NCBI RefSeq assembly: GCF_048403405.1
Contig: NZ_CP183129.1
From: Escherichia coli
GTDB taxonomy: Bacteria; Pseudomonadota; Gammaproteobacteria; Enterobacterales; Enterobacteriaceae
DNA: 64,000 bases
Strand: one strand, 5' to 3'
This document shows, piece by piece, positions 49,101 to 55,100 of this stretch (position 1 is the stretch's first letter; the number at the start of each line of letters is the position of its first letter). Position numbers: made by a program.

Positions 49101-52100
49101 ACTATTCTCTTCTTTTTGCACTAGAAGTTCCGCCAGTGCTGCCAGTGCTGCGTGTGGGAACGCAGCGCAGGCTTTCGTCATTCGATCGTGACAGCGTTTA
49201 GTATGCCCTGCTACACGTATAAGCAGTGTTAATGCGAACGGATGATTGATATGACGCAACACATCGGCGCAGTAGTCACTTGCGACATAGGGAGCAAATC
49301 GGGGCAGGGCCGCAACACCTTGCTCCTGTAATACGGTGGCTGACCATATCGCACCACAATAGTAATCATCAAAAATGGCATATGGCTCGTGATATTTTTC
49401 TAATGAGGCAAGAATGTGCTCATCAGTCGCCACTATTTTTAGCCACTCCAGCGAGGGTAATTTCTTTTGCCCCAGTAGACGCTGGGCAATTTCATGTGCA
49501 ATTTCTGGTTTTTCGGGCAATAACAAAGCAATTAATGGTTGCCGCCATTCTGGAATATGTGGAACTGCGGCAATAAGTTTTTGTGCACATTTTTGCCAGA
49601 GAGACTCTTCCGCCAGTGATAAATGTTTACGTAGGCGTAATTCAAAGCTGGAATATTGCTGCAAATAATCAGGTGAAATGCCAGACGACAGGAAAACAAT
49701 ATTATTGTTGACATAATCCCATTCAATAGATATTTGTTGAAGATGTATTATTACATCAGTAGCATATTCCAGACCGCCTTCCTGAATAATCTGATCCATA
49801 ACATCCGCACGCTCTTTATATCTCGTGCAGTGCAGTTCAAGTGCCGCGAGTACAGCCATTACCGGTGATGGTAATTTTGTCGTTTTCGGGCTGTTAATCA
49901 GATCGATCGCCTGAGCGATGAAGTTTTGCCACTCTAAAGTACAGGCGCTGAAGTCAAATGTAGCTGTTTTGTTATCCCGTTGCGACACGCCACAGGCTAA
50001 GCGACGTAACTGGGTTAATTTATCTACAGGTGTAACAGGATCTCCGGGAAAGCGGCGATGGCTTAAGGTGGTGGGTACGACTTCAAGCGGAAAAACGACA
50101 GCAATATCTTTTGCCAGCCACGGTAAAATAACGTCTGTATTTTTGTCAGCCACGTAGAATTCTGGTGTAACTGAGGGCTGTTCCTGAATGATGGTAGAAA
50201 AGTCAGATAATTCGAGAGATTTCGTTACCGTTCGAGTATGTTTCGATGTAGCATTCTCCGCATGTTCCACATACCCCTTTTTCGTTTTCTCCGCAATCAG
50301 CTTGAGTTCCGCTTTTTCCGCCGCCGCAGCATCTGCAAAGCTTTTTACCTGACTTTGCCCGTTGGTGCCGACTTTGCCCCAACTGATATTCAGTTCGTTT
50401 CCCTGCTGCTCCACCGCCCAGAATTTATGTGATTTTTCGTCCTGATAAATATAGGTTTTCATTGCAAAGTCCTTTTAATCAAAAAGTGATTCGATGTCGT
50501 TAATGAGTTCGCTGGCGGTGATGGCATCAAGCGCGGAGAACGTGAGCGAGGGCTGTGTACTGTAGCGTTCCCCTGGTGAAGTGATTTTTACGCTTTCAAC
50601 AGGTAGCAGGTCGCTATACCCCGTTTCGCCATAAATTAATGAAAAATGTTCTGTTTCAAGTTCGAGAGCGCCATAAGGGGTAGATTTGCGCATCGCATAG
50701 ACGCTGCCGCTTTCTTCCAGACGTTGCCAGCCTCGACGTTCCAGCCCGACAATGCGCCCGGCCTGGCAAAGACGTCCTTGCCAGCGTATCAATTCATGGG
50801 TATCACGTTCATTATCAGTAAGGTGGTAATAACCACGATCGAGTTGGCGAAAGGGAGGAAGCTTTTCGTAATCAGCATAAATTTGCCCAAATGCAGTGGC
50901 GGATTCAGGAGATATTTCCAGCACATGCGGTATACCGATGTTTCCTGCTGGCAGCGTGAATAACTCATCCTGCGCATCGCTGTAAGTGCTGTCTTCTGCG
51001 ACCCGGAAGCAGGCGATCAGCGTGTTTTCCTCAGTATATACCCCCCATAACACCCGTCGGGTTAAGTGACGTACCAGCGGATGCTCCACCAGAAACAGGC
51101 GGAACTGCTCTGCCGTCCAGCGTCTGCGCTGGCACATATCCTGCTCCAGACGATCAATCTGCTGGCTGGCAATGGCGTGCACATCTTTCTTCAATTGTTT
51201 GAAGAGGTTAACGGAGTCAGTTGCCAGTGTTTGATCATCGCTCTGATTTGGTTTGGGTAAATCTTTCAGGACTTTGCCGTTTGCATCGTGCACTACAGGT
51301 TTTAAGGTTTCGTCAAAACCAACGGTGAATTGACGTGGGCCGAAATCCAGTATCAGCGAGCCACTGTTATCAAGCCCTAAATCTGGAGCCAGGCGGTCTT
51401 CCAGTTCAGCCATAGTCAGCCCACGGTTTTCAGCAACTATGTTGATTTTCTCGCGGGCATGTTCCTGTAATGCTTTGAATTTAATTTTTCGCGCGATGCC
51501 ATTAAGCAGCATTAGCGCAACATCGCTGCCAATATCAGCTAATACATCCAGCCCGTAAACCGCGCGTTTATGCTGGGATTCACCCGGCCAGGCACGGATA
51601 AGCGGGGTTAATTTACGTGCGGTGTCGTCATTGCCTAAAATCCCAAGCGAAGTAAATGCCCAGTTTTCTTTTGCGGGTGCGCCAGCTTCTGTCCATGCCG
51701 TGTAGAGATCCCAGCCAAAGTCAGCCAGTGATTCGTGGGTGAAGGTCTCTTTGATGGTCGCCAGCCCAGCGTAGGAGGTAATGTCGCGTGGAAAGCTCAA
51801 CATTGTGCCCAGGTGGCGCATAGCGTCATCTGGCAGAGGCAGGTTGTTACTTTTAAGCCGTGGTCTGCGCCATAAGGTGAACTGATAAAAGCCGGGCAGT
51901 GGGGCGATTTTAGCGGGATATTCTTCCAGCGGATCGCTATCGAACAATGTTGCCAGCGCAGCTAAAACATCAGGTTGGTTGTATCTCCGGCCGATTTCTT
52001 CAATCGTTTCTCGCTGGTTTAATTTCACTAGCAGGCGGAATGCCTGGCGGGCATATTCCCGATTTTGGCACGGTTTGCCCAGCGCCAAAGGCAGTAGCCC

Positions 52101-55100
52101 GGCGGCGGCATGGCGCGGGTTATTTGCCAGCCAATTAATGGCATCCTTGTAAGCCATTTTTTTCTGTAATCGCTGCGCCATTGGTAAGGCTAGTTCACTG
52201 GCCCCAATAAAGAGGGTGAATATCCACAGTCGTTGATGATCTCGTTGCAAGCAGGTCATAAACGCAGGAATGGCCGTACTACCAAAAACTGCCAGAATCT
52301 CTTTCTCACCTGAATATCGCTCCTCAATGATTATTTGGTTGAGAAATGAAATCGCCTGTTGTCCCGGTAAGTAACAAAGCGCAGATAGATTCCAGCTTTT
52401 GTTGGCATTGTTGTGATATTTCGCAAACTCAGCTTTTAGTGCTGGAAAATCAAAGCGCAACAAGGCATCAACAGCGCTTTGCGGTATATATTTTTTTTCA
52501 TGTAAGTCATCTTCGCAATGCAGCCATTCATTAAAACCTAATTGCCAAAGGATTTGTTGTTCTGGTGTAAAAGGAATGAAAGATGTCTCCCAGCTTTCTT
52601 TTTCAATTAGTGGCAGGTCGGTAAATAAGGTTTGCTGTGATGACTGATATTGCGCGATTTCACTGAATCTGGATATGTCAGTATGACTGATTAACTCTGT
52701 AATTCCTGGCGTGATGTCAGTGACTGCAGGGATGGGAAGCACCGGTAAATCAAATACGGGTATTACATTCGTTTTCTTATTTATTACCCACGGTGGAGCG
52801 ACAAACAGCTCCGGCAACATATCCGCAGTGGCGTATTCACATTCTTCAGCGACTAACTGAGTACGACATTCAGATAAGATGCCTGCCGCTTTAGCATTAA
52901 CCCAGGGAATGACGTCAGTGACTAAATCTGGCGTGGCGGTAATCAGTTTGACAAGCGCTTTACGCCACTGTGCATCTTCATGTATTGCCAGTAAAGTTGC
53001 ATAAGCGGCAAGAGCCGCAGCGGGATGTTTTTGACAGGCTTTGCTTAAGTATTCCAGGTGCTTTTTCTTGCCAATTACACCGAGGATCAGAATTTGAATC
53101 GCATCCGGGTGATTCGTTTTCCATAGCCATTTGACAAGATCTTCAGTCTCGCTGATGCGCTCGAAGAGATAAGTGGGATTGTCAGAATGCTCTTCCGTAA
53201 ACTCAAGAAGTATCCGGCTTACACCGCGCACCCCATTATTTGCCAGCAACATTGCCAGATAAGCGCGAAAATCATGATACAACGGTGGGAAGTCGTATTT
53301 TTCTGCTGTAGTCAGAGCGGCGTCATCGGTTACCACCAGTCTTAACCAGGTCATCGCCGGAACGTTTTGATCTGCATAACGTAGCGCCATAGCATTGGCA
53401 ATATCCGGGCGTTCAGGGAGCAGTAACGCCGCAAAAGGTTGCCGTGCTGGGGATAGCGAGGGAATAGCAGCGAGAACTTTATCTACACAGCGTTGCCACT
53501 CATCTTCTGAAGCGAGTGAAAGATGATGACATAGACGTTGATGCCAGTTCGGTAGTGATTCTGCTTTGAGATCAGGGGGAATAATGGTGGTGACGTCGGC
53601 TTTTACTGGTTTATATTTGAGTTGAAGAGCGAGAAGGGCGATTTCAACGGTAGTTTCCAGACCACAGCGAATGACTAAGTCATCGACCAGTTCATCTGTA
53701 GAGTAAGAGTTCCATAAATTCCAGAGCAATGCCGCATCAGATTGTATACTTCCTGTTTGTTGATTATTCAGAATTCGCCTTTGTAACTCGGCAAACGCCA
53801 GCTGCCAGTTTTCAGGATAAGAGCGGTAATTATTGTCGGGGTCATATGCCCTGGTGTTATTCGCGATGCGCTTCCATATTTGGCCATCTTTGTACAGATA
53901 ATTGATCTCTCTGGGGCGAGAGCGATGAGGAAAAGCAAATCGATTAATATCGCCAGTTACCGGAATGACTGCATCATCAGCCACCCATGGGCGTTTGTTT
54001 TTACTCTCAGGGGAGGTTTCAACTTCAGGAGTGGCTTTGGTGATGGGGGGGATATGCACGTTTGCTAAAGCATTTTCCACATAGCCTTTTTTCGTTTTCT
54101 CTGCGATCAGCTTAAGCTCCGCTTTTGCCGCTGCCGCAGCATCCGCAAAACTTTTTACCTGGTTTTGCCCTTTGGTGCCAACTTTTCCCCAACAGATATG
54201 CAACTCGTTTCCCTGTTGCTCCACCGCCCAGAATTTATGTGATTTTTCGTCCTGAAAGATAAAGTGCCTCATTCTGCATCCCTGTAATTTTATCCAGTTG
54301 AATGCTGATGCTACCAGTATTTATGCGGGTTAGAGAGAGACAAAATCGCAAGAAAACAACTTTAGGAATTTATAAAGAAAAGGCGCTGTCGATACAGCGC
54401 CTTGAAAGGAGATTATTTCACCTGATGACCCGGTTTAGCACCGGCATCCGGGCTTAGCAGGAAAATATCTTTCCCGCCAGGACCGGCAGCCATCACCATG
54501 CCTTCGGAGATACCGAAGCGCATTTTACGTGGTGCCAGGTTAGCCACCATAATGGTATGACGACCAATCAGTGCCTGCGGATCCGGGTAAGCAGAACGAA
54601 TGCCGGAGAAGACATTGCGCTTTTCACCGCCGAGATCCAGCGTCAGGCGCAGCAGTTTGTCAGAACCTTCAACAAACTCTGCGTTTTCGATCAACGCCAC
54701 GCGCAGGTCAACTTTGGCGAAGTCGTCAAAGGTGATGGTTTCCTGAATCGGATCATCTGCCAGTGGGCCAGTTACTGGCGTGGCAGCTGCTTTCACTTCT
54801 TCTTTAGACGCTTCCACCAGTGCTTCAACCTGCTTCATGTCAATACGGTTATACAGCGCCTTGAACGGATTCACTTTGTGGCCCAGCAGCGGTTGCTGGA
54901 TACCATGCCAGGTCAGTTCTGTATTGAGGAATGCTTCTGCACGCTCGGTCAGTTTCGGCAGTACCGGCTTCAGGTAAGTCATCAGCACGCGGAACAGGTT
55001 TATGCCCATCGAGCAAATTGCCTGCAGGTCGGCATCGCGTCCTTCCTGTTTCGCCACCACCCACGGAGCCTGTTCATCGACATAACGGTTAGCCAGATCT

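Follow-up and report, generated by a model that had tools for sequence, protein, structure and literature searches.

Exchange of short terminal blocks between tandem WGR-DUF4132 paralogs beside metG in Escherichia coli: probable gene conversion, and unequal crossing-over as a probable origin of the hybrid gene molR

The gene pair tufA/tufB of Salmonella and Escherichia coli and the ribosomal RNA (rRNA) operons of bacteria undergo concerted evolution by RecA-dependent gene conversion. Unequal crossing-over of tandem paralogs gives rise to hybrid genes, as in haemoglobin (Hb) Lepore, formed from the human delta- and beta-globin genes, and in the red/green opsin arrays. A third kind of system is represented by cassette-type loci, such as the toxin tips of Rhs and contact-dependent growth inhibition (CDI) proteins and the pilin or opa families, which combine conserved handles with variable cores. 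Domain-restricted concerted evolution and Lepore-type hybrid deletion are thus both well-known phenomena, and the subject here is a locus of E. coli at which the two appear together. It lies in a stretch of 64,000 nucleotides (nt) of contig NZ_CP183129.1 (assembly GCF_048403405.1), the whole of which is called the window, and contains tandem genes whose proteins carry a WGR domain (PF05406, which occurs also in PARP1/2) and a DUF4132 domain (PF13569). It is very probable that short blocks at the ends of these genes have been repeatedly exchanged between the paralogs by gene conversion, and that unequal crossing-over at the 5' blocks deleted 3810 bp, joining two paralogs into the gene known in K-12 as molR. 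A search of the literature found no publication describing this recombination at the locus.

The locus, which is 100% identical to that of E. coli strain TUM14771, comprises three tandem paralogs on the minus strand between metG (54413-56455) and yehK (42645-42965), separated by spacers of only 9-12 nt, in the order metG-C-B-A(yehI)-yehK/L. Gene C, the metG-proximal open reading frame (ORF; 50475..54272), encodes 1265 amino acids (aa), with Pfam matches to WGR at aa 5-67 (65.3 bits) and to DUF4132 at aa 999-1182 (164.5 bits). Gene B, the 'molR' ORF (46668..50462), encodes 1264 aa and scores 64.5 bits for WGR and 175 bits for DUF4132; all four scores are above the gathering score, and in both proteins the WGR domain is N-terminal (aa 5-69) and DUF4132 C-terminal. 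The third paralog, gene A (43026..46658, 1210 aa; identified by ORF, Pfam and RefSeq annotation as yehI), has DUF4132 only, without WGR, shares neither of the blocks described below and ends in a different C-terminal tail. The WGR part of B and C matches PDB entry 2ra8, an uncharacterised protein of Bacteroides fragilis. An NCBIfam search returned as its sole result a sub-threshold match of the WGR region to a Leptospira family, and none of the PADLOC 2.0 defence models matched A, B or C at E <= 0.01. The name 'MolR, molybdate metabolism regulator' is unsupported by any domain found in B.

B and C resemble each other closely at two places only. The 5' block covers codons 1-68, coinciding with the WGR-coding region, and is a direct repeat of 204 nt on the minus strand (54070..54273 in C; 50260..50463 in B), detected by a repeat finder with 176/204 identical positions (86%) and a start-to-start spacing of 3810. 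Its longest exact run, 39 nt at nt 18-56 counted from the gene start (nt 1 being that of the start codon, as throughout), lies at 54217..54255 in C and 50407-50445 in B, also on the minus strand, and encodes QDEKSHKFWAVEQ. The 3' block, a direct repeat of 67 nt with 57/67 identical positions (85%), covers on the same strand the last 22 codons of C (50475..50541; FSxLDxITASELINDIESLFD and stop) and of B (46668..46734; ...ITASELINDIEALFE and stop), with an exact core of 27 nt at 50497-50523 and 46690-46716, respectively. Outside the blocks the two genes are 45-75% identical in DNA, with a range of 31-78% over 30-codon windows, and the proteins share 47%; the similarity is bounded by the start codon and by the stop codon, and the flanking upstream and downstream sequences are unrelated. 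A preliminary description, made from the sequence of the window alone, had reported such blocks at both gene ends, and a sliding-window identity check bears out that they are real and sharply delimited against a diverged remainder. The strings which it quoted were likewise found where it had placed them (CTCCACCGCCCAGAATTTATGTGATTTTTCGTCCTGA at 50409-50445 and 54219-54255; TCGTTAATGAGTTCGCTGGCGGTGATG at 46690-46716 and 50497-50523), and its spacing of about 3.8 kb agrees with the measured 3810. Its wording 'near-identical' was, at 86% and 85%, too strong.

Part of this similarity follows from the proteins themselves. Between B and C of the window, the proportion of nonsynonymous differences (pN) is 0.06 in the 5' block and 0.12 in the 3' block, so that selection on the WGR and C-terminal modules, one of the two explanations first offered, is real. 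The proportion of synonymous differences (pS) is 0.44 in the 5' block, equivalent to a corrected synonymous divergence (dS) of about 0.67, and 0.41 in the 3' block, as compared with 0.67-0.77 (about 0.72), which is saturated, elsewhere in the two genes. None of the 66-codon windows shows a pS below that of the 5' block (binomial p = 2e-4). Since other windows dip to 0.49-0.55, the window alone gives moderate evidence of an identity beyond what protein conservation would produce. Protein conservation accounts for only part of the similarity of the 5' block, and the decisive evidence comes from other genomes.

The alternative that survives best is that protein-level purifying selection alone keeps the DNA of the blocks similar, without any exchange between the paralogs. 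The low pN values of both blocks speak for it, as do the considerable dS that the block pair of the window still has, the EKSHKFW/QDEKSHKFW motif kept in WGR proteins of Bacteroidota and Bacillus, the tail peptide kept in Klebsiella and Erwinia, and a block identity that shows no excess within genomes. Already inside the two genes, however, it meets a difficulty in the DUF4132 region, which is equally conserved (pN 0.13-0.19) and yet has saturated pS and, as described below, many fixed differences between the paralogs.

A scan of one genome per species revealed the arrangement metG-C-B-A-yehL also in E. whittamii, Escherichia sp. E1V33, Klebsiella oxytoca and K. spallanzanii. When B and C of the window were set in a quartet with B and C of K. 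oxytoca, codons 1-66 held 16 sites that group the sequences by genus and 1 that groups them by orthology, whereas in the rest of the gene the counts were 100 and 319 (Fisher p = 4e-9), and the pattern was repeated with four other Escherichia loci. Of the 16 genus-grouping sites, five involve synonymous change only, and several others fall at third codon positions. In the same sense, the mean nucleotide identity of the block is 0.874 between the B and C paralogs of Escherichia and 0.826 between those of Klebsiella, compared with 0.78 for orthologs between the genera; the opposite holds for B in DUF4132, where its orthologs (0.761) are closer than the Escherichia paralogs (0.676). Orthologous bodies combined with genus-grouped blocks indicate that the B/C duplication predates the split of Escherichia and Klebsiella and that the WGR block has been homogenised since, by this comparison separately in each genus. 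Selection on the protein alone explains neither the genus-specific synonymous states common to both paralogs nor the contrast of 16:1 with 100:319.

The same conclusion is reached within E. coli, for which a panel of 16 loci spanning the allelic range was compiled, nine of them with three genes and seven with two. Over nt 16-165 in the nine three-gene loci there are 0 fixed differences between B and C and 16 shared polymorphisms, in which the same two bases segregate in both genes, while the conserved C-terminal third, taken as a control, has 195 fixed and 35 shared (Fisher p = 8.5e-11, calculated from 150-nt windows, the first of which holds 15 shared and 1 fixed). Positions diagnostic of B or C are confined, within the 5' block, to the first five codons (MKTY vs MRHF/MKHF) and to nt 168 onward. 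The 3' block behaves similarly inside the species: from nt -66 to -16 there are 5 shared polymorphisms and 0 fixed differences, whereas in the 150 nt ahead of it 2 sites are shared and 31 fixed (p = 4e-5). In the window the tail variants are even swapped, C having the 'LDA' typical of B and B having the 'LDD' typical of C. Concerted evolution, which the preliminary description had set beside selection as the other explanation, thus holds for the 5' block on both comparisons and for the 3' block within E. coli only.

A further line of evidence is provided by a fourth WGR and DUF4132 paralog, D, which was found in 9 of 5426 E. coli genomes. In strain USDA-ARS-USMARC-49610 (locus L055) it lies in degenerate form between C and B (L055 4636-8376), making a four-gene locus metG-C-D-B-A. 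When its body was compared with B and with C over nt 300-2100, no similarity of the DNA could be detected; it is 82% identical to its ortholog, the metG-proximal gene of Escherichia sp. MOD1-EC7003 (L021/L030). The first 194 nt of D are identical at 194/194 positions to the B-allele block of a different strain (L016), the B-type first codons included, while their identity with the block of that ortholog is no more than 85-88%. A block identical to a B allele but placed on an unrelated body is evidence for recent exchange. The possibility that L055, with its three block copies, was a reciprocal duplication product had been considered and was rejected, the extra gene being the distinct paralog D.

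The shared polymorphisms without fixed differences and the 194-nt identical block on unrelated gene bodies are again left unexplained by selection on the protein alone, an explanation which is already contradicted for the 5' block and which for the similarity as a whole must be rated very unlikely. Less probable still, to the point of being extremely unlikely, is that a function at the level of the nucleic acid constrains the synonymous sites, by 5' mRNA structure or translation-initiation context at one end and a coupling signal at the other. The blocks do adjoin start and stop codons, the distance of 9-12 nt between the genes makes translational coupling plausible, and the 39-nt core is invariant in most alleles. 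However, an Rfam scan of the blocks found no RNA family, the sequences upstream of both starts and downstream of both stops are unrelated, and such a function predicts fixed conservation rather than shared polymorphisms or parallel genus-specific changes.

The second consequence of the repeats is structural. Gene C was found in 1643 of the 5426 complete E. coli genomes (about 30%) and the body of gene B in 5331 (about 98%), while the 5' block occurs 7074 times in 5419 genomes, that is, twice where C is present and once elsewhere. The one genome without the B body that was looked into, among roughly 90 others lacking it, is that of the enterotoxigenic E. coli (ETEC) strain H10407, where an IS1 rearrangement is responsible. 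The locus spans 11601 bp in the three-gene form of the window and 7791 bp in the common two-gene form, a difference of 3810 bp, equal to the repeat spacing. From the locus spans and the diagnostic alleles, the segment missing from two-gene genomes such as K-12 corresponds approximately to 50296..54105 (minus strand) of the window. It takes in all of C beyond about nt 168, the spacer of 12 nt and B from nt 1 to about nt 167, the crossover being placed no more precisely than inside the block.

The genes that remain in two-gene strains are hybrids. All seven sampled single genes, K-12 molR included, have the upstream region of C and C-only alleles at nt 5-15, which extend to nt 100-159 in most of them (overall range nt 17-159; K-12, nt 159); B-only alleles start at nt 168 in 7/7, followed by the B body. 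These bodies are 82-99% identical to B and 44-75% to C, and they fall into at least two B-body types, each of which is also found as a B allele in three-gene strains. In K. grimontii, too, a two-gene locus was found whose single gene combines the upstream region of C with a B body, which points to the same kind of deletion having taken place independently in another genus. The two-gene form is regarded as derived and the three-gene state as ancestral because the outgroups have three genes. Copy-number variants and chimeric genes, which the preliminary description had proposed looking for in other strains, were therefore both found, and the proposal that the repeats explain strain-to-strain variation in copy number is upheld by a locus exactly 3810 bp shorter with a C-5'/B-body gene. 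Of the deletion or duplication that the repeats had been expected to mediate, the deletion stands and the duplication does not, no B/C hybrid product of that kind having been found. A C-body/B-tail hybrid, as a deletion through the 3' blocks would leave, is absent from the 16 E. coli loci of the panel. The inverse proposal, that the three-gene locus is derived and that C was inserted by horizontal transfer into a two-gene locus with the blocks as integration site, might appeal to the about 70% of E. coli genomes without C and to C alleles differing by up to 12.7%, which could suggest a foreign origin, but it is hardly credible given metG-C-B-A with orthologous bodies in E. whittamii, Escherichia sp. 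E1V33, K. oxytoca and K. spallanzanii, and single genes in which the first codons and upstream region of C are joined to a B body, as expected of a deletion and not of an ancestral B.

For efficient RecA pairing in E. coli, about 25 bp of exact identity is the minimum. The exact runs between the B and C blocks, 39 nt in the window and 32-49 nt in three-gene strains, exceed this minimum and are long enough for RecA pairing. In the history that these observations favour, the tandem array of DUF4132 paralogs, two of which (B and C) open with a WGR domain, is old. Short-tract homologous recombination, presumably RecA-mediated gene conversion, would have repeatedly exchanged the 5' block of 200 bp that encodes WGR and, on weaker evidence, the 50-bp block of the 3' tail; it would hold both at 85-90% identity while synonymous sites elsewhere in the genes became saturated. 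Conservation is increased further by purifying selection, which acts on the WGR domain and on the C-terminal peptide and probably preserves the stretches of exact identity (39 and 27 nt) on which recombination depends. Unequal crossing-over between the 5' direct repeats 3810 bp apart, probably also RecA-dependent, would then have eliminated C's body together with the first part of B. What is left is a hybrid, with the C promoter and first codons joined to the B body; K-12 'molR' is such a gene, and about 70% of E. coli genomes have no other gene with a WGR domain. The same 5' block is also the junction at which paralog D sits in the four-gene loci.

Several observations weigh against this account or narrow it. 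The blocks of the window differ at 14% of sites, with the dS of about 0.67 given above, which argues that no recent conversion occurred in the window itself. Over the nine three-gene loci, the B-C block identity is 0.857 within a genome and 0.855 between genomes, and exchange must accordingly have been sporadic and patchy instead of a continuous homogenisation in each strain. An ongoing homogenisation at strain level, as the preliminary description had worded it, was dropped for this reason. At the other end of the genes, the quartet test between genera gave no signal for the 3' tail (2:4), with too few sites, and the tail peptide is conserved as far as Erwinia, so that selection alone may explain the 3' tail between genera. 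Part of the shared polymorphism could have arisen as hybrid genes carried a C-type block into B between strains, a route that would count as non-allelic recombination, though not as conversion inside one genome. All hybrids have the same first B-diagnostic site (nt 168), and one ancient deletion followed by allelic exchange is for this reason indistinguishable from several deletions. The strict reciprocal product, a duplication with a B-5'/C-body hybrid between C and B, was not found, the four-gene loci carrying paralog D in its place. Finally, the panel is small: besides the 16 loci of E. coli, it has a single Klebsiella genome in which both blocks are complete.

The repeats had also been thought to explain pseudogenisation at the locus, and this candidate cause was rejected. 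The lesions of K-12 molR are a nonsense codon (TTA>TGA at codon 275) and a +1 frameshift (+G at nt 2846), both far from the blocks. O157:H7 has three genes, of which B and C are both pseudogenes by frameshifts or stops, and in other strains the WGR genes are truncated by IS1. IS1 insertions that truncate WGR genes and delete much of the array were seen in SY3626 and in ETEC H10407 (L009 8288-9893; L054 8248-11675); in SY3626, IS421 in addition splits yehM, and in H10407 the region from yehI to yehQ is lost up to yehR. In addition, codon 15 of the K-12 hybrid gene (L001 9020-9022) encodes Arg where the WGR motif is otherwise invariably Trp (KFRAVEQQ vs KFWAVEQQ). In a sublineage of sequence type 131 (ST131), a transposon with blaCTX-M-15 has been described as inserted in the 'metG/DUF4132/yeh region' (PMC9334617).

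The bodies of the genes vary considerably between strains. Over nt 200-1500 of gene B (48960-50260 of the window), E. coli alleles have a mean pairwise nucleotide identity of 68% with a minimum of 50%, and the sequence that immediately follows the WGR domain falls into five classes or more (L001, L003-L017). The corresponding means are 93% for yehI, 91% for C and 96% (minimum 93%) for the adjacent 3' end of metG; these levels of diversity look high for E. coli genes, judged by the authors' expectation. A short form of B, of 1010 aa with about 250 internal residues fewer, is intact in L005 and L007 (4831-7863 in each), L017 (4369-7401) and L019 (13814-16846). Escherichia sp. E1V33 and a number of E. 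coli strains have it in this intact state, O157:H7 (L008) with a frameshift, and it looks like a structural polymorphism shared across species.

More distant relatives organise the family differently. Erwinia persicina and E. rhapontici have a single WGR and DUF4132 gene directly before homologs of yehL, yehM, yehP and yehQ, the homology being judged from ORF termini only; these loci (L025 10001-20360, L027 10001-20437 and L028 183-10535) are not beside metG and are without yehI. The linkage to yehLMPQ in Erwinia suggests one functional module. In Intestinirhabdus alba (L026 4053-7898), a single metG-adjacent gene starts with WGR but has a C-terminal tail of the yehI type (...LSEALSAAEIIF); it may represent a fusion or an ancestral state of the family. 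A broader and rather doubtful proposal would make the WGR head and the C-terminal tail the recombination 'handles' of a modular, hypervariable sensor family working with yehLMPQ, which codes for an AAA ATPase and DUF5682, VWA and SWIM proteins. The middle regions could then be shuffled, gained (D) or lost (C) between paralogs and strains, as in conflict or immunity loci, and the extreme divergence of B, down to 50% nucleotide identity within E. coli, would reflect diversifying selection. The hypervariable middle, the two to four copies per genome, the linkage to yehLMPQ even in Erwinia and the block-delimited junctions are compatible with such a role.

Next to the array, between yehL and yehK, the window has a match to the OrzO-P RNA antitoxin (Rfam RF02083, 101 bits) at 42181-42256 on the minus strand. 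Near it, a 25-nt direct repeat is found at 42244-42268 and 42410-42434, 166 nt apart. Together the two features suggest a tandem zor-orz type I toxin-antitoxin locus, and a 2010 survey of type I toxin-antitoxin systems (PMC2887945) reportedly mentions yehI and yehL.

With respect to what these findings mean, the K-12 'molR' pseudogene can be read as a fusion of two ancient paralogs that was later broken by two point lesions, while about 30% of E. coli, ST131 among them, still carry the ancestral form with its three genes intact. The locus would offer a clean bacterial example of gene conversion limited to one domain within otherwise saturated paralogs. It also provides an explanation for a common 3.8-kb structural polymorphism beside metG, which matters for pangenome studies and ortholog calling because B, C, D and the hybrids are all annotated 'DUF4132 domain-containing protein'. 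The yehI/molR/yehLMPQ region as a whole is unusually diverse and structurally unstable, and recognising this may help to assign a function to WGR and DUF4132 proteins.

Among the described systems, some proteins and loci share single features with this one. PARP1/2 have the WGR domain in common with B and C, which are without the PARP catalytic domain. As in the Rhs/CDI toxin tips and the pilin or opa families, a constant N-terminal module and a C-terminal tail flank a variable middle, and the constant DNA serves as recombination junction, as seen in paralog D. Unlike in those families, there is no evidence here of silent cassettes, programmed switching or toxin-immunity pairs, and PADLOC holds no matching model.

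The resemblance to tufA/tufB and the rRNA operons is that paralogs are more similar within a lineage than orthologs are between lineages, synonymous sites included, through exchange on the same chromosome. The differences are of degree and of arrangement: homogenisation is confined here to a 200-bp block and a 50-bp tail of 3.8-kb genes; the identity reached is about 86-90%, where in those systems it is above 99%; and the copies are adjacent direct repeats, so that crossing-over between them deletes DNA. With Hb Lepore and the opsin arrays the locus shares exactly this outcome. Unlike in Hb Lepore, the crossover is forced into the one stretch of homology that can serve for it, at the very 5' end, the protein encoded by the hybrid is in essence B, with a few residues of C type in its WGR domain, and the strict anti-Lepore product was not seen; moreover, the locus is bacterial and the hybrid is the majority allele, present in about 70% of the species. 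As in Hb Lepore and the opsin arrays, the length of the deletion equals the spacing of the repeats, the promoter and 5' end of the upstream paralog are joined to the body of the downstream one, and the number of copies varies within the population.

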